The notes: generated from the letters alone by a model not told the origin. Shown: positions 6,592 to 13,133, counted from the first letter of the stretch. The stretch: 13,250 nucleotides of DNA from an uncultured bacterium (GCA_964619725.1 CAZUFC010000184.1:1-13250), one strand, 5' to 3'. Numbers and translations: made by a program.

Positions 6592-6913
6592 CTTTACTGA
6601 ATAACCACCGTAAATTGCCGGTGTGGTCCTTAAAAATCTTTTTTCTGCGATATCTGGCCTCCCGACAGGTTTAAGTCTACAAAATAATGCGGCTCCATTC
6701 TCTTCTTTTTTCGTCTGCATTCCCGATCTTTCAATTGTAAAATGTATTTCGGCGCTGATTTAAAACAGGCTCTGTATATTAGGCTAAAATATAAAAAAAA
6801 ATTTTTTTGTTAAATTCAGAGAAAAGATGGATTGTATAGTGAGAGGCATAGATTGATGATGCAGAGAAAATCGTTTAAAATGATTGAAGATGAATTCGGA
6901 GGGAGTTAATTCG

Positions 6914-8275
6914 ATGACGAAAAAGAGAAATAGGTTTAACATGATTTATTATGATTTCCTGGATCAATTGGCGTTCAGAAAACCGGAGTCTCCATGTCCT
7001 GATCCGAATGAAATAACAAAGCCTTTTCTCATGATTGAGGGTAAATACAAAGATCATTTAACTTCCTGCGGTAATTGCTTCGACCTTTTCATCAAATGGC
7101 ACACCGCAGAATATAAAAAGAGATCGAGTAAAAAAGAAATTTTCAAATCGATTGAAGAGTTGAAAAGCAAAGATTTTCATGAGGAACCGGATGAAGAAGA
7201 GATTTCTGAAACGGTGATGGAAATTCAGGAGAAAAATCGGAAGACTATCGAAGAATTGTCCAGGAATAAGGAGAGATTGTTCAAGTTGCCGGGTTTGAAA
7301 GAGATTGAAAGGACCGAAGAGATAGGAATGGTTTTAGATTTTTATCAGAAATCGAACTTTTCCGCTGCCTTTCATATCTCCAGGAAAGCGTTGAATCAGC
7401 AGCCGCATGATCCCGGCGTCATATTGCTTCATGCGTTTTCTGCTATTGCTGCAGGACGCGGTAATGCGGCTTTGTCGATCATGGATGAGATTGAAAACAA
7501 GATTTCGTCCGGATCGGCAGTCAAAACGACGAGTTCTTTATTCAGAATTTTTGCTTTGCTGTCCCTGGGCCTTTTTCATTCGGCTTTTTCCTTGATATCC
7601 CGGAATATAGAAATGAGCCGGATGCTTCTTCAGGATGAGATTCTTCAAATATCGATGGAGTTGCAGCATGAGATTGAAGCGGTTCGTTTTGCTTCCGCGG
7701 GTTTTGAACTTGGGGATAAATTCGAGGCGGAAAAAGTTCATCCTGTTGTGCTGAATCGTCAAAAATCATTATCAGAGCGTATAAAAGATGCGCTGGAGGC
7801 TTTTATGACCCTGCCCGGCAGTTTTACTGACCGGTTCGCTCATGCCGTTTCTCATGACAGATATCCGGGAAGAATCAGGGAAAAACTGCGGTTTCATGTA
7901 ATAGATTTGACGATCCTTCATTCGGCTTACACAAGCATCAAAATCACAAAAAGCGTTAAAAAGAAATTTAACTTTTTTGATTTGCCTGATGATTACATCA
8001 GCCGTAGGGTTTATCTGGCGATAATGAGCGATTACGATATCAGGAAAAAATATCCGGATACTGAAGGAACGCAGATGGAGTCAGCTCTCAGGAAAATATT
8101 CCTTTCCGGCCGATTCCTGGAAATGGATATTGAATTGAAGCATGTTCAGGCTGCCGTCGTGAAGGAATACAAGTCGAATGGAGAGACAAAGGGCTGTTTT
8201 GAGTTTGAGATTCCCGATTCCTTACAGGATCAGATTTTGAGATTATCCAACCAGACGGCTGTCGTGATTACATAA
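6914..8275 (+). CDS. Hypothetical protein with N-terminal zinc-binding anti-sigma (ZAS/zf-HC2-like) motif and TPR-like helices; putative soluble anti-sigma factor
   Basis: ATG 6914 is preceded by GGAGGGAG at 6898-6905 (the ORF track starts at TTG 6884). Motif C-P-x18-H-L-x2-C-x2-C ('CPDPNE...KDHLTSCGNC', 6995-7078). TPR-like 'FYQKSNFSAAFHISRKALNQQPHDPGVILLHAFSAIAAGRGNAAL'. Adjacent to an ECF sigma gene. The CDS is solid; the function is inferred. Confidence 0.7.
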   Translation: MTKKRNRFNMIYYDFLDQLAFRKPESPCPDPNEITKPFLMIEGKYKDHLTSCGNCFDLFIKWHTAEYKKRSSKKEIFKSIEELKSKDFHEEPDEEEISETVMEIQEKNRKTIEELSRNKERLFKLPGLKEIERTEEIGMVLDFYQKSNFSAAFHISRKALNQQPHDPGVILLHAFSAIAAGRGNAALSIMDEIENKISSGSAVKTTSSLFRIFALLSLGLFHSAFSLISRNIEMSRMLLQDEILQISMELQHEIEAVRFASAGFELGDKFEAEKVHPVVLNRQKSLSERIKDALEAFMTLPGSFTDRFAHAVSHDRYPGRIREKLRFHVIDLTILHSAYTSIKITKSVKKKFNFFDLPDDYISRRVYLAIMSDYDIRKKYPDTEGTQMESALRKIFLSGRFLEMDIELKHVQAAVVKEYKSNGETKGCFEFEIPDSLQDQILRLSNQTAVVIT

Positions 8276-8290
8276 GAGAAAAAACGTCCA

Positions 8291-9100
8291 TCACCCGCAA
8301 CGCTCCCGCAACCTCTCCCGGGCCCGGTAAATATGTTGTCCCAACGATCCCTTGCTTATCCCCAGGCTTTTTGCCAGTATCTCGTAGGGGACTTTATGAG
8401 CGATCCCCAGGAGCGCCGCTTTCTGGACAGGTTTTAATTTTTCATACTCTCTGAGAAGACATTCCAGTTTTTTTATTTTTTCTTCTTCATGAATCGCCGG
8501 TTCGCTGTCGATTTCCATCTGTTTTTCCCGTTCTTCCAGCATTCTTTCATACTTTCTTCGATCCTGCTTCTTCTTTTTTAAAAATTTTCGCGCCATATTT
8601 TTATCGGTCTTTAATATAAAACTTTGACCGATTTTGTCGCCCACTGACCTGGTATTCGGTACGCACCTGAATTCCAGGGGCTTTCTCAGAATTTTTAAGA
8701 ATTTCTCATTAACAAGAGTTTCCGCATCTCCTGCTCCGAGAATATTCTCATCAATTTTAAAGCAGAGTTCTCTGTACCGGTAAAATAATATTTCCAACGC
8801 CGTATCCACAATTTCGCGATGTTCATGCAGGCGCGATATGATTTCCAGCAATTCCGCTCCGCTCAACTTCTGCAAGTCATGACGCTTTATCATATTTTTT
8901 TTCCCGGCGCGTGAACAAAATTCCTCCCATGCCCTAACCGCCAGAAGCTTTTCGCCTTTTCCGCGCTGAAAAATGTCGATCAATTCACCGGCGCTTTTTT
9001 TCTCCAGTTCCCTTTGAACGCTATTCAGCGCTTTTTCCATATCGGAAAGCGAGTCGAACGCTCCGTTCGTTTCGCCGTTTAAAGATTTTTCCTTACTCAT
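8291..9100 (-). CDS. ECF-type (sigma-70 group 4) RNA polymerase sigma factor, divergent, with N-terminal extension
   Basis: AAGGGG RBS upstream on the minus strand. Sigma2-like 'ALEILFYRYRELCFKI..NILGAGDAETLVNEKFLKI' and 'SFILKTDKNMARKFLKK'. Clear sigma4 HTH 'KLKPVQKAALL....VPYEILAKSLGISKGSLGQHIYRARERLRE'. Confidence 0.85.
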   Translation of the reverse strand: MSKEKSLNGETNGAFDSLSDMEKALNSVQRELEKKSAGELIDIFQRGKGEKLLAVRAWEEFCSRAGKKNMIKRHDLQKLSGAELLEIISRLHEHREIVDTALEILFYRYRELCFKIDENILGAGDAETLVNEKFLKILRKPLEFRCVPNTRSVGDKIGQSFILKTDKNMARKFLKKKKQDRRKYERMLEEREKQMEIDSEPAIHEEEKIKKLECLLREYEKLKPVQKAALLGIAHKVPYEILAKSLGISKGSLGQHIYRARERLRERCG

Positions 9101-9306
9101 TTTTCCCCTTTCATAGAACCGGAAACTCGATCAAAATTTTTTAAATTTAACATTCCATGCTCCAGCAAAAAAAGCAAAATCTGATTTCTACCAAATATCA
9201 TCAGAGAAACATTTTTTCAAGATGCTCGGTATTGCAGCTAGAGCGACTGAAAGATTTACGGGATTCCAGTAAGGCGGAACTGAGCATACAGAAGATATGA
9301 TTTTTT

Positions 9307-9355
9307 GGGACTGATCAGACCGGGGTTACACCTCTTGTAAAACTTTCAACAGTTT
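9307..9355 (+). repeat. 49-bp imperfect direct repeat, copy 1 (upstream of the CHAT gene)
   Basis: GGGACTGATCAGACCGGGGTTACACCTCTTGTAAAACTTTCAACAGTTT; 40/49 ungapped identity to 13202-13250 by manual alignment. Confidence 0.9.
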
Positions 9356-9363
9356 GTTTCAGG

Positions 9364-9393
9364 AATCGGGGTCGGGGTCGCAATCGCAATCGA
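9364..9393 (+). repeat. Degenerate hexamer tandem repeat (RRTCGN)x5
   Basis: AATCGG GGTCGG GGTCGC AATCGC AATCGA read directly. Confidence 0.75.
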
Positions 9394-9476
9394 AACGAAT
9401 GGATATTCAGTAGGATTGTAACCTCAAAGGATGCATTTTTGATCAATGCCGATTTTTTTGAATCTCTTTTTCGCTC

Positions 9477-9504
9477 ATCCGTGATTATACGCGTTATCCG
9501 CGTG
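9477..9504 (+). repeat. Degenerate 9-10-nt tandem repeat (ATCCGYGTT-like)x3
   Basis: ATCCGTGATT ATACGCGTT ATCCGCGTG; a related dimer ATTCGCGTA ATCCGTGAT lies at 280-297. Confidence 0.55.
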
Positions 9505-9592
9505 CGCTGGAGGCTGAAGAATCGTTTCCAGGAACCTGAGTATTCAGACCATCATCCGAATTTAAAAGTCATTTTTACTGTGCCCAATCGTC

Positions 9593-9621
9593 TTGACAAT
9601 TTGTTTTCGCAAAGTAATACT
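9593..9621 (+). promoter_or_regulatory. Putative sigma-70 promoter for the TPR-CHAT gene
   Basis: Consensus TTGACA (9593-9598), 17-nt spacer, AATACT (9616-9621; 4/6 match to TATAAT), about 95 nt upstream of ATG 9717. Confidence 0.55.
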
Positions 9622-9716
9622 GGCTATGGATACAAACCTTGTTTCGATTAAGGGAAAAGATTGAGAATCAATGATCGTTGCATCTCGACTCAAGGAAAAC
9701 AAAAAAGGAAATCATC

Positions 9717-12700
9717 ATGGAGAAAGCGTTGAGAAGATTCATGTCTGCGCCGCTGAGGCTCATCAAATACAAGATGGTCCAGGAGCATCCTGCCCTTGTC
9801 GGCAGCAGATGCGTGGAGCTGATGGAAAACCACAGGCGCCGGTCATGGGATGAAAAGAATTATAGAAAAGTTCAGGAAATTACAAAAGAAATCATTTTCG
9901 TACAGGGATGTTTGCGTCATGGTGTGGAGAGGATGTTTTTCGGATGGTCAGGAGACGAAAAAAGGCATGTGAATTTGAATATTTCTGAGGAGATAGTTGA
10001 TAAGTTGTACAGAGTAAATGAATTTCAGGATAAATCGGGGTTGGCGAAGAGAATTGAATTATATGAGGACCTTTTGCCGTCAATCAGAAGAGAAGAGTTT
10101 CCAGAGTTGTGGGGAGATTTGCATAACAGAATCGGCGCTCATTTGTCTGAACTGTACGAATTTGAGGAAAAAAAGAATTATAAAACGGCGCTCGATCATT
10201 TCAATTTATCTCAAGAGGTATACACCTATGAGGCATTTCCGGTAAATTGGGCGAATATTCAGAACAATAAGGCCGTCGCCTTTTTTAATCAGAGCGGAAT
10301 GGAGGATGAGGACGACATAGAATTATCCATAAAACTTTTCAAATCGGTTTTTTCTGTTTTTAAGCGTGAGGTTTTTCCGACGGATTGGGCTGAGACGCAC
10401 GTCGGTCTGGCGACGATTCACATGAATCGCTTAAGAGGAAAAAGGCCGGAAAATCTGGAACAGGCGATTCATCACTGCGGTCGAGCTTTAGAGATTTTTA
10501 CGCGTGAGGCGTTTCCGATAGCCTGGGCGGAAACCGAAAATTTACTGGCGAATTCTTATGAGGACCTTGTGAATGAAGAACGAGCCGACAATATAGAAGA
10601 GGCAATCAAGCATTACAAAAGAGTCCTTACGGTTATAGACGGAGAGATTTTTCCTATGTTTTGGGGTAAGATTCAAGATGAATTAGCCAATGCTTACGAG
10701 CAGCGCATTAAGGGCGACCCGGCTGAAAATCTGGAAAAGTCTATCCAGTATCATAAGCTGGCCCTGGAGGTACGAAAAAAAGAAATATCGCCCCGGGATT
10801 GGACTGCGAGTAACATTAATCTGGGTAATGCTTATCGAAGAAGAATATGCGGAGACAAAGCGGAAAACATAGAGTGTTCGATTTTCCATTTCAAACAAGC
10901 TTTAGAAGTTCTAAACATTGAGACATCACCGGTCTATTGGGCCATAACTTACATGAACATGGCAAATGCTTACTGGGAGAGAATTCATGGAGATAAGACA
11001 GAGAATATTGAAAAGGCTGTAGAATATCACAAAAAAGCTCTTGCCGTGTTTACTCGTGAATCAAGTCCATTGTATTGGGCAGCAGTACATCTAAATCTTT
11101 CAAATGCTTATCTGGACAGAACATGTGGTGATTGCGCCGAAAACATAGAAATTGCAATCCAGCATAGTCATTTATCTCTCAAAGAATTCACACGAGACAA
11201 TTATCCTCCCTATTGGGCTGAGAGTATGCACATTTTAGGGGAAGCCTATGTGAAGCGTGAGTCGGGCGATAAAAAAGAAAATCTCAAAAAAGCCATCGGT
11301 TATTTTCTATCAGCTTTGGAGATCAGGACAGTAGAATCATTTACTCAGAACAGGCTGGAAACCCTGGCAGAGCTTTTACAGGCATATATTAAACTATCGA
11401 AATATGACGAAGCAATCGAAATTTCTGAAGATATTCGGCTTACAGCTCAACTCCTTCGCAGGAGGGAAGTTACGCGAGAAAGTATGGAAATACGTATTGA
11501 GGAGATTTCTGAACTCTATTCGCTTGTATCCTGGTGTTTGCTTAAACGGGAGAGAATTCCGGAAGCTCTGTTATGGCATGAAAGAGGAAAAACGAAAATG
11601 ATTCGTGAGCGAACGGCACGTGACAAGGCATTATTCCTGGAGCTTAGCGAGAAAGACAAGTTGAGATATGAAAAAATCGTGAATAAGCTACGGACGTTGG
11701 AATCCGAACAGCCGGCAGATGATTTGCCGGGAGAGCATAAACTGAAAAAATTGAAACAAATCAGAAGAGTAAAGGATGAGTTGGAAGCCTTAATAGGAAG
11801 AATACGGGAATATCGTCCTGATTTTTTATCCGAAGGGATGAATTTTCATGAAATGAGGCAGTGTCTCTCGTGGGAAAAGAATAAAGTCATCATCACATTT
11901 ATTTTTACTGAATATGGTTCAGGAGCCGTTATACTGGCCGGCAAACCCGGTGCGCCGATAATCAGACACGTTGTTCTGGATGAATTCACCGACGATAAGT
12001 TAAAAGAATTCATCGACCGCTGGACGGCGGAAAACAATAAATTCCGCGACCGGTCGGATCATGAGCCGGCACGGATGGAATGGGGCTGTTTTGTTGATCT
12101 CTTTATGGAGGAGTTGTATAAATCGCTTTTTACGCCCCTGGAGGGCATCCTGAAAAAAATTAACCCGCAATCTATCGTTTTTATTCCCCATAAATCGCTT
12201 CATATTTTGCCCCTTCACCTTTTAAACAAAGTGGAAAACGGTGAAAGGCAATATCTCATAGATGAATATGAGATAAGTTTTTCCCCATCCTTTGAAATGT
12301 TACGAAGCGAAGGAGAAGCGCGCCTGAAAATCGGCGACACTCTGGTTGCTGCAGCCGATCCGACCGAGGACCTGCCCTGGAGCCGGGAAGAAGTCAATAA
12401 AAGCTCTGAATATTTTAATTCAAAAAAGGTTTTTATAGGAGCGGACGCCGGAATAAACAACATAATTCAACATGCTGCGGGTTCGGGAGTGATTCATATC
12501 GCATGTCATGGAGAATTCGATATGACCGATCCTTATCGATCCATGCTTGTAATGGCGCCGCCGAAAAAAAATATTCCGGATCACGTTGAAAAAAGGGAGC
12601 ATCAATCTGCAACAGTCATCAAAACAAAAAATGATCAAAAGTTGTGTGAGTACCTCAGTCTCGGCGAAGGTGAAAAGGAGATGCTACAATACAATTCCCG

Positions 12701-13133
12701 GGGCGGAATACGCTCAAGGGTCAGGACATTTGCCGACGGTCGTGAGTTAGTGATAGACCCGGATAATGACCGACCGATAGGAGAACCGTGGACTCTGGGA
12801 CGAATTCTAAGGGAGTTGCGTCTTACGGATACATTTCTGGTTGTTCTTTCAGCCTGCGAATCAGGCGTAGTCAACATCGAACGGCTCCCCGACGAATATA
12901 TGGGAATACCGGCGGGTTTTTTAGCTGCAGGCGCCCGTTCCGTCGTAAGCAGCCTCTGGAAAGTGAACGATAAAAGCTCATGCGAGCTGATGAAAATTTT
13001 CTATGAAAACATGATCAATAAAAAACAATCGCCCACTAAAGCTCTGTGTAATGCTCAAAAAGTATTGCGATCACAAAAGAGCTACTCCAATGTATATTAT
13101 TGGGGAGCATTTCAAGTGTCGGGACAGGGCTGA
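9717..13133 (+). CDS. TPR-repeat CHAT-domain protein (caspase-like clan CD cysteine protease)
   Basis: ATG 9717 with AAGGA at 9705-9709 (the ORF track starts at TTG 9678). Nine 46-aa TPR-like repeats. CHAT motifs 'ELYKSLFTPL', 'IVFIPHKSLHILPLHLL', 'YLIDEYEISFSPS', 'LPWSREEV', 'IHIACHG' (His codon 12507-12509), 'LVVLSACESG' (Cys codon 12855-12857), 'GFLAAGARSVVSSLWKVND', 'ALCNAQ', 'YYWGAFQVSG'. Confidence 0.95.
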   Translation: MEKALRRFMSAPLRLIKYKMVQEHPALVGSRCVELMENHRRRSWDEKNYRKVQEITKEIIFVQGCLRHGVERMFFGWSGDEKRHVNLNISEEIVDKLYRVNEFQDKSGLAKRIELYEDLLPSIRREEFPELWGDLHNRIGAHLSELYEFEEKKNYKTALDHFNLSQEVYTYEAFPVNWANIQNNKAVAFFNQSGMEDEDDIELSIKLFKSVFSVFKREVFPTDWAETHVGLATIHMNRLRGKRPENLEQAIHHCGRALEIFTREAFPIAWAETENLLANSYEDLVNEERADNIEEAIKHYKRVLTVIDGEIFPMFWGKIQDELANAYEQRIKGDPAENLEKSIQYHKLALEVRKKEISPRDWTASNINLGNAYRRRICGDKAENIECSIFHFKQALEVLNIETSPVYWAITYMNMANAYWERIHGDKTENIEKAVEYHKKALAVFTRESSPLYWAAVHLNLSNAYLDRTCGDCAENIEIAIQHSHLSLKEFTRDNYPPYWAESMHILGEAYVKRESGDKKENLKKAIGYFLSALEIRTVESFTQNRLETLAELLQAYIKLSKYDEAIEISEDIRLTAQLLRRREVTRESMEIRIEEISELYSLVSWCLLKRERIPEALLWHERGKTKMIRERTARDKALFLELSEKDKLRYEKIVNKLRTLESEQPADDLPGEHKLKKLKQIRRVKDELEALIGRIREYRPDFLSEGMNFHEMRQCLSWEKNKVIITFIFTEYGSGAVILAGKPGAPIIRHVVLDEFTDDKLKEFIDRWTAENNKFRDRSDHEPARMEWGCFVDLFMEELYKSLFTPLEGILKKINPQSIVFIPHKSLHILPLHLLNKVENGERQYLIDEYEISFSPSFEMLRSEGEARLKIGDTLVAAADPTEDLPWSREEVNKSSEYFNSKKVFIGADAGINNIIQHAAGSGVIHIACHGEFDMTDPYRSMLVMAPPKKNIPDHVEKREHQSATVIKTKNDQKLCEYLSLGEGEKEMLQYNSRGGIRSRVRTFADGRELVIDPDNDRPIGEPWTLGRILRELRLTDTFLVVLSACESGVVNIERLPDEYMGIPAGFLAAGARSVVSSLWKVNDKSSCELMKIFYENMINKKQSPTKALCNAQKVLRSQKSYSNVYYWGAFQVSGQG
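10089..11330 (+). repeat. Nine tandem 138-nt (46-aa) TPR-like coding repeats
   Basis: Units begin REEFP, YEAFP, REVFP, REAFP, GEIFP, KEISP, IETSP, RESSP, RDNYP. Consensus is approximately RExFPxxWAxxxxxLANAYxxRxxGDxxENIExAIxHxxxALEVFT. Exact 46-aa register (9 x 138 = 1242 nt), followed by a degenerate tenth unit. Confidence 0.92.

Follow-up and report, generated by a model that had tools for sequence, protein, structure and literature searches.

The 13,250-nucleotide (nt) stretch of DNA analyzed here, referred to below as the window, is the entire contig C184 of the genome of an uncultured bacterium (GCA_964619725.1 CAZUFC010000184.1:1-13250). According to our analysis, it carries a module of three adjacent genes (6914..13133), as a first-pass annotation of the sequence had proposed: one for a 453-amino-acid (aa) protein resembling the zinc-binding anti-sigma (ZAS) factors, one for a divergent sigma factor of the extracytoplasmic function (ECF) type and one for a protease of 1138 or 1151 aa that joins tetratricopeptide repeats (TPR) to a CHAT domain. 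The protease has an intact catalytic pair, and the linkage of the three gene families is conserved. We give roughly an even chance to the reading that the locus is a cytoplasmic switch, independent of clustered regularly interspaced short palindromic repeats (CRISPR), in which the protease gates the release of the sigma from its anti-sigma partner. The binding of the sigma, the cleavage, the signal and the regulon would follow by analogy with two described systems, Csx29/Csx30/CASP-sigma and DdvA/DdvS.

The protease gene (9678..13133, plus strand) encodes 1151 aa from a TTG at 9678 or 1138 aa from an ATG at 9717. Its CHAT domain (12108..13127, plus strand) matched PF12770 with E 9.8e-47 and 160 bits (cut-off 24). 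Of the solved structures, Csx29 is most closely related to the protein (E 4e-9), and His944 (12507-12509) and Cys1060 (12855-12857) were aligned with the Csx29 catalytic motifs and are kept in 8/8 aligned protease paralogues, in agreement with the first-pass annotation, which had described both motifs as intact and had placed the Cys codon at 12855. The N-terminal domain of about 95 aa (9717..10001, plus strand) is common to the proteases of C184, of three other contigs of the same genome (C116, C144, and C217) and of a metagenome contig. It is followed by nine TPR-like repeats with an exact period of 46 residues (10149..11441, plus strand; motif at 152, 198, ... 520), in which the Pfam family TPR_12 gave 51 bits. 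In the paralogous protease of contig C43 (45679-49098; L014 4680-8099) a TPR-S “sensor” repeat was matched with 31.1 bits against a cut-off of 27.6, and the window protease stayed below this cut-off.

Between the catalytic His and Cys lies a charged insert of about 85-95 aa (~12555-12812, plus strand), the length of which varies from 40 to 100 residues among the aligned paralogues. It is conserved in the proteases of C184, C116, and C217 and is shorter or different in the other paralogues, and Csx29 has only a short spacer at this position. The insert could be a regulatory or self-cleavage loop. A Kyte-Doolittle scan of the three proteins revealed neither a conserved hydrophobic segment nor a signal-like N-terminal stretch, which agrees with the earlier remark that all of them look cytoplasmic; the single hydropathy peak of 1.70 in the ZAS-like protein lies within a TPR helix, at a place where the paralogues are polar.

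The gene for the ZAS-like protein (6914..8275, plus strand; gene call P0001) starts with an ATG at 6914, 8 nt after the Shine-Dalgarno-like GGAGGGAG (6899..6906, plus strand), and its open reading frame (ORF) is open from a TTG at 6884. The helical region at the N-terminus (residues ~25-71; 6986..7126, plus strand) carries a ZAS-type C...HxxxCxxC arrangement of candidate zinc ligands, Cys28 and then His48-x3-Cys52-x2-Cys55; thus the HxxxCxxC motif is present as noted at first pass, with an additional Cys upstream. All four ligands recur in 9/9 ZAS-like relatives that have an N-terminus. When these N-termini were compared by hhalign with those of 11 canonical zf-HC2 proteins from the genome of C184, a probability of 79% and E 1.6e-5 were obtained in what is a partly circular comparison, both sets having been cut around the HxxxCxxC motif. 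Compared with canonical ZAS domains, the helices are spaced about 6 residues more closely, and Pfam gave no zf-HC2 (PF13490) match for the window protein. TPR_19 was matched with 18.4 bits, below its Pfam cut-off of 25. A language-model look-up placed the protein beside clusters combining zf-HC2 and TPR (score 0.92), which we treat as a lead only.

An AlphaFold2 model of this protein, built on an alignment of seven sequences, had a predicted local distance difference test (pLDDT) of 76. The N-terminal helices (residues 31-71) were modeled with pLDDT 62-83. They are followed by an acidic, disordered linker (residues 70-90; 7121..7183, plus strand; pLDDT <50), which may be a cleavage region, and by a long helix at residues 94-117. 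The middle of the protein is a predicted helical domain of three TPR-like units (residues 130-265; 7301..7708, plus strand; pLDDT 85-94), whose seven helices are confident at residues 135-260. By VIA-align it resembled three-TPR domains with Z 12-13.3 and a root-mean-square deviation of 2.7-3.3 A over 118-127 residues, the matches including a type III secretion system chaperone, CHIP, Sti1, and YbgF, and Foldseek gave target-normalized TM values of 0.64-0.77 for the same matches; helical repeats easily score high in such comparisons, and the match rests on a predicted model. At this level, the TPR that had been attributed to the protein are borne out. No similarity between this middle region and the 46-residue repeats of the protease was detected by hhalign.

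Beyond floppy segments at residues 268-315, the model ends in a beta-sandwich with inserted helices (residues 328-453; 7895..8272, plus strand) that closes with a conserved hydrophobic strand. Folded alone, this C-terminal domain reached pLDDT 84 and a predicted TM score of 0.78. No convincing fold match was found for it (best Z 5.8; best Foldseek E 0.016, none <=0.001), and the language-model atlas contained no usable match. The domain is the signature of the family, and we regard it as a candidate docking or substrate domain.

The sigma gene (8291..9100, minus strand; 269 aa) is convergent with the gene for the ZAS-like protein, their stop codons being 15 nt apart. Region 4 (residues 213-264; 8309..8464, minus strand) matched Pfam Sigma70_r4_2 with 27.2 bits against a cut-off of 25.7, and a region 2-like part (residues ~95-180; 8561..8818, minus strand) is defined by alignment of the family profile to sigma2 of Escherichia coli RpoE (1or7). 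The profile of four family sigmas matched E. coli sigma-E (1or7 residues 22-186) over sigma2-sigma4 with E 1.3e-8, and many other ECF sigmas after it. The only PHROG match within the module was to a generic sigma family. Because the profile matches 1or7 and region 4 passes its cut-off while the general model TIGR02937 falls short, the protein is, as judged from sequence, a strongly divergent ECF-like sigma with regions sigma2 and sigma4 only, and the earlier assignment to the ECF type holds. Alignments of the family sigmas also revealed an N-terminal extension of about 94 aa (8819..9100, minus strand), which is present in the sigmas of the window and of C217 and absent from those of C144 and the metagenome.

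The linkage of the three families was examined in the genome and beyond it. A tblastn search with the three proteins revealed two further loci of the same genome, on C217 and C144, at which all three families occur. The gene order on C217 is that of the window, and on C144 the protease, sigma, and ZAS genes follow one another on one strand, the last two overlapping. On C217 (L003) the protease gene lies in two overlapping ORFs, 7015-8316 and 8276-9256 (7015-9256 in all), a split due either to a frameshift or to a repeat array that collapsed in the assembly. An exhaustive search of 1.84 billion representative proteins with the ZAS-like profile returned only seven matches, the longest <=487 aa. 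Five of them come from the genome of C184, and the other two are a 448-aa protein of high guanine-plus-cytosine (GC) content and a 253-aa short form. The one metagenome contig obtained for the high-GC protein (L013, 4,663 nt) carries a sigma gene, the ZAS-like gene and a gene for a TPR protein in this order, the stop codon of one gene overlapping the start codon of the next. Its sigma is a member of the small family to which that of the window belongs, and the third ORF is collinear with the window protease from the N-terminus (BLASTP E 2e-31). The three families are thus found together at C184, C217, and C144 and on the unrelated high-GC contig, in three gene orders. This linkage has been kept despite the shuffled gene order, which argues for a joint function.

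The gene neighborhood is thus conserved at three loci of the genome and on L013, and kindred triads occur at three further CHAT loci. In total, 6/13 CHAT loci of the genome (C184, C217, C144, C43, C153, and C240) carry a sigma-like gene and a gene for an HxxxCxxC protein, with the motif at residues 31-75 in all six partners. The motif occurs in 108/22,513 ORFs of the genome (0.48%) and in 5/113 ORFs within 3 kb of CHAT genes (binomial P 2.3e-4); one further HxxxCxxC ORF, on C43, overlaps a CHAT gene and is not among these five. Five of the 33 sigma region-4 matches in the genome adjoin CHAT genes. With L013 included, the sigma gene is followed directly by the ZAS gene, with overlapping codons, in five of the seven modules (C144, C43, C153, C240, and L013), and this is the standard layout of an ECF sigma and its anti-sigma; on C43 and L013 the ZAS gene in turn overlaps, at its end, with the protease gene. 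The convergent orientation of the window, which had been considered unusual at first pass, is accordingly only the minority form among these modules (2/7), the other five being collinear and overlapping.

Seven core members were used to build a hidden Markov model (HMM) of the C-terminal domain, which matched 6/22,513 ORFs of the genome, among them the ZAS protein of C240 (E 3.1e-5), which lay outside the training set. The ZAS partners on C43 and C153 resemble each other (E 1.9e-8), reach 18.6 and 17.8 bits with zf-HC2 against a cut-off of 22.2, and may, to judge from their sequences, form a second type. On C1 (190538-192841; L012 7539-9842) a 254-aa form has the motif and the C-terminal domain and lacks the TPR middle. 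It adjoins a 457-aa protein of no known family, with no sigma or CHAT gene nearby; this neighbor was considered as a sigma and rejected, as it is not sigma-like. The protease on C116 (3884-7162), which has the same N-terminal domain, stands between a protein containing a carbohydrate-binding module and a PcRGLX-like protein.

Outside the genome, the ZAS-like family is very rare. Word-based searches returned only proteins of the genome of C184, together with the metagenome sigma P0013 and seven canonical ECF sigmas, and the ZAS-like family was found in 0/40 related genomes, 13 of them of the same phylum. In the 80 best CHAT loci of other species, mostly cyanobacteria, an ECF-like ORF was present within 8 kb at three, all in Acidobacteriota, and ECF-like and HxxxCxxC ORFs occurred together at one, by a survey whose ECF model, derived from canonical sigmas, could overlook divergent members. 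Therefore, the linkage with sigma and ZAS genes is a property of particular CHAT lineages and not of CHAT genes generally.

Independence from CRISPR had also been proposed at first pass, and a domain scan agrees with it, no cas domain being found on the 13,250-nt contig, within the limit set by the contig ends. Matches to repeat-associated mysterious proteins were located elsewhere in the genome, on C183, C78, C10, and C67, and none of these contigs holds a CHAT match, again as far as the contig ends allow. No SAVED, CARF or cyclase domain was matched in the module.

On these grounds the following sequence of events can be envisaged for the protease-gated switch. In the resting state, the N-terminal ZAS-type zinc domain of the 453-aa protein would keep the divergent sigma inactive, while its TPR middle and C-terminal beta-sandwich would tether it to the TPR-CHAT protease or present it for cleavage. 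The array of 46-residue repeats of the protease, together with its N-terminal domain, would sense a signal and turn on the His944/Cys1060 site. The protease would then cut the ZAS-like protein, most plausibly in a flexible linker (residues 70-90 or 268-315), an expectation consistent with the low-confidence linkers between the confident domains of the model. Once the ZAS remnant is lost, the free sigma would direct RNA polymerase to its own regulon.

Several results weigh against this reading. The ZAS-like protein falls under every Pfam and NCBIfam cut-off and is likewise without a match in PADLOC and PHROG. The window sigma reaches only 31.3 bits with TIGR02937 (residues 101-267; cut-off 42.9), five further module sigmas giving 34.6-38.5 bits, and Pfam Sigma70_r2 gives no match in it. 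Two modules, those of the window and of C217, have convergent sigma and ZAS genes that are not co-transcribed, and L013 ends after 312 aa of its third gene, so that a CHAT domain there is only presumed. The ZAS proteins of C43 and C153 were not found by the C-terminal-domain HMM, their kinship to the window family thus remaining undetected by it. Moreover, the closest paralogue of the protease (47% identity), on C116, is flanked by neither a sigma nor a ZAS gene, and it might act in trans on a ZAS-like protein; ZAS-like relatives on C1 and C11 stand with no protease or sigma nearby, the latter at a locus that stops at the contig edge. Finally, a shared promoter motif was sought upstream of the module genes and was not found.

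An alternative that we regard as unlikely, although less so than the other rivals, is that the 453-aa protein acts as an anti-sigma of the thiol- or zinc-sensing kind, from which oxidation of the Cys/His site frees the sigma, as in RsrA/SigR; the protease would then be a target of the sigma, an effector or a source of feedback, and not the activator upstream of it. ZAS factors can be redox switches, although many ZAS domains are not redox-sensitive, which counts against this alternative. The retention of the C...HxxxCxxC ligands in all nine relatives with an N-terminus would suit such a sensor. So would the divergence of the protease gene from the sigma gene in the window, on C217 and on C240, since the shared intergenic region could hold a sigma-dependent promoter. 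Redox switching of ZAS factors is also mentioned in the available part of PMC11506125. On the other side, no promoter motif was found, and redox sensing leaves unexplained both the family-specific C-terminal domain of the ZAS protein, which co-varies with the presence of the protease, and the overlap of the protease and ZAS genes on C43 and L013.

The first-pass annotation had further suggested a role in defense or stress, with a phage protein as one possible cue, and we consider it rather improbable that the locus is an anti-phage or abortive-infection module, in which recognition of a phage protein by the TPR array would lead the freed sigma, or the protease itself, to start a defense or death program. 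It is suggested by analogy, since craspase and DdvA/DdvS act in defense, and by the TPR-S “sensor” match of the C43 paralogue (31 bits). Database and neighborhood scans do not support it. PADLOC had no match for two of the three proteins and one weak match for the protease (CARF9--CARF_HEPN, 17.7 bits), and PHROG offered only the generic sigma family. A scan of the genes beside all six modules revealed no defense genes; the neighbors are efflux, lectin-like/surface-protein, glycosyltransferase, radical S-adenosylmethionine, phospholipase-D-like, and sulfatase-maturase genes. That a 9.2-Mb genome holds six paralogous copies points rather to an expanded signaling family.

It is slightly more doubtful still that the CHAT protease processes a pro-sigma by removing its extension of about 94 aa, with the ZAS-like protein serving as an adaptor or inhibitor of the protease. 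The extension is present in two of the four family sigmas, and PCaspase of a type III-B system is reported, in the part of the preprint available to us, to cleave a putative sigma factor (bioRxiv 10.1101/2023.06.23.546230). Nevertheless, the sigmas of C144 and L013 have no extension and yet the same partners, and the overlapping sigma/ZAS gene pairs better fit an anti-sigma relation. That the three genes are mere neighbors, whose products do not act on one another, or that the sigma-like protein no longer works, is very improbable: region 4 excepted, all sigma and ZAS matches are under curated cut-offs, as this would predict, but the linkage persists despite three different gene orders and recurs in an unrelated organism of high GC content, and HxxxCxxC proteins are enriched near CHAT genes (binomial 2.3e-4).

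The genome to which C184 belongs comprises 9.17 Mb in 344 contigs and is 90.9% complete. Besides the three-gene module, which makes up the rest of the contig, C184 carries at 650-6591 genes for a TolC-like outer-membrane protein, an HlyD-type adaptor, an ATPase of the ATP-binding cassette type and two MacB/FtsX permeases. These form a five-gene efflux operon of the MacAB-TolC type, with separate genes for the two permeases and overlapping gene ends. The GC content is 0.498 in the efflux operon and 0.425 in the module, compared with 0.471 in the genome. A dispersed repeat of about 150 nt occurs once (~9300-9455) in the intergenic region between the divergent sigma and protease genes (9101..9677), and a partial copy lies at the contig end (13194-13250); the ends of the repeat are inverted. 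A blastn search of the genome gave 607 matches to it, 298 of which are at least 110 nt long and distributed on 157 contigs, and 52 lie within 150 nt of a contig end. The repeat is without an Rfam family, an Rfam scan of the whole window being empty, and its folding equals that of shuffled sequence (z -0.01). It is probably an element resembling a miniature inverted-repeat transposable element or a repetitive extragenic palindromic sequence that breaks the assembly. Scans for sigma-70 promoters and terminators were at or under the shuffle expectation. A loose TGGAT...GATT pattern with a spacing of 14-18 nt was seen at only three to four sites and is not regarded as promoter evidence.

Overall, what is new here is a private family of ZAS-TPR-beta-sandwich partners and its unusual six-fold expansion in one genome. 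We suggest tentatively, and with more doubt than attaches to the switch itself, that these modules represent a distinct class of one-step intracellular device, in which a soluble, caspase-like sensor-protease is wired to a private sigma by a zinc-finger/TPR/beta-sandwich adaptor that is its sole substrate. The six divergent copies would then provide orthogonal channels for different cytoplasmic protein or peptide cues, a form of bacterial protease-gated transcription that would have evolved independently of CRISPR. Such modules could also be the stock from which the Csx29/Csx30/sigma arm of craspase was recruited. Studies of ECF sigma release gated by a CHAT protease have so far been confined to a CRISPR-linked form, craspase, and a membrane-bound one, DdvA. 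If the proposed switch is true, the circuit of caspase-like protease, anti-sigma, and sigma would be a general signaling design that needs no nucleic-acid guide, and it would offer a simple system for finding what TPR-CHAT proteins sense, as well as naturally orthogonal protease-sigma pairs.

Among known systems, the canonical soluble ZAS anti-sigma, exemplified by RsrA/SigR, has an N-terminal helical C/H...HxxxCxxC domain, and its gene adjoins that of an ECF sigma. Unlike RsrA, the ZAS-like protein has about 380 extra residues, which form the TPR and beta-sandwich parts, and a linked CHAT protease. Another point of comparison is the ECF54-type context, for which genes for CHAT proteins, subtilases, and carboxypeptidases near ECF sigma genes have been described and proteolytic control proposed; in the available parts of these sources, ECF54 is described without an anti-sigma, whereas the module has a ZAS-like partner (PMC8999054, PMC7826278). 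In the type III-B systems CalpL/CalpT/CalpS and SAVED-CHAT/PCaspase/PCc-sigma, a signal-activated protease cleaves an anti-sigma-like protein or a sigma, according to the accessible text of the preprint (bioRxiv 10.1101/2023.06.23.546230). Cyclic oligoadenylates activate these proteases by way of SAVED domains, and neither SAVED nor CARF nor a cyclase accompanies the module.

A closer parallel is provided by DdvA/DdvS, which likewise combines an ECF sigma, a ZAS domain, and TPR-CHAT. As far as the available part of the source goes, DdvA of Myxococcus xanthus joins the ZAS domain and TPR-CHAT in one anti-sigma protein, a single transmembrane polypeptide with a periplasmic TPR-CHAT part, and cleavage by CHAT, with cleavage by RseP following it, is proposed as the releasing step (PMC11506125). 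The module differs from it in consisting of two separate soluble proteins with no conserved membrane segment, in the TPR and beta-sandwich domains that the ZAS-like protein adds, and in having no genes of CRISPR or of a cyclic-oligonucleotide-based antiphage signaling system beside it. The match of the protease to the 991-residue chain of PDB 8rot, which we provisionally take to be DdvA, was marginal (E 0.12).

The arm of the type III-E craspase that comprises Csx29 (TPR-CHAT), Csx30, CASP-sigma, and Csx31 is similar in another respect, since its cytoplasmic TPR-CHAT protease has as partner a soluble protein of several domains that inhibits an ECF-like sigma, the role that is putative for the ZAS-like protein; in the available part of the source, Csx29 cleaves the CASP-sigma inhibitor Csx30 (PMC10028731). 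Unlike in craspase, there is no Cas7-11 and no CRISPR RNA on the contig, and unlike Csx29 itself, the window protease reaches only 70.4 bits with NF041237 (cut-off 300), exceeds it in length about 1.7-fold and contains nine repeats of 46 residues. The ZAS-like profile matched nothing in PDB at E<=10 but a collagen, in libraries for which the presence of Csx30 was not established, and the sigma profile matched the PDB chain named RpoE (9n9q) only with E 0.1. In the parts available to us of the literature on CHAT and TPR-CHAT proteins with sigma, anti-sigma or ECF context, a stand-alone cytoplasmic version was not found. By analogy, the module may be viewed as a split, soluble counterpart of both DdvA/DdvS and the Csx29/Csx30/CASP-sigma arm of craspase, and as a member of neither.

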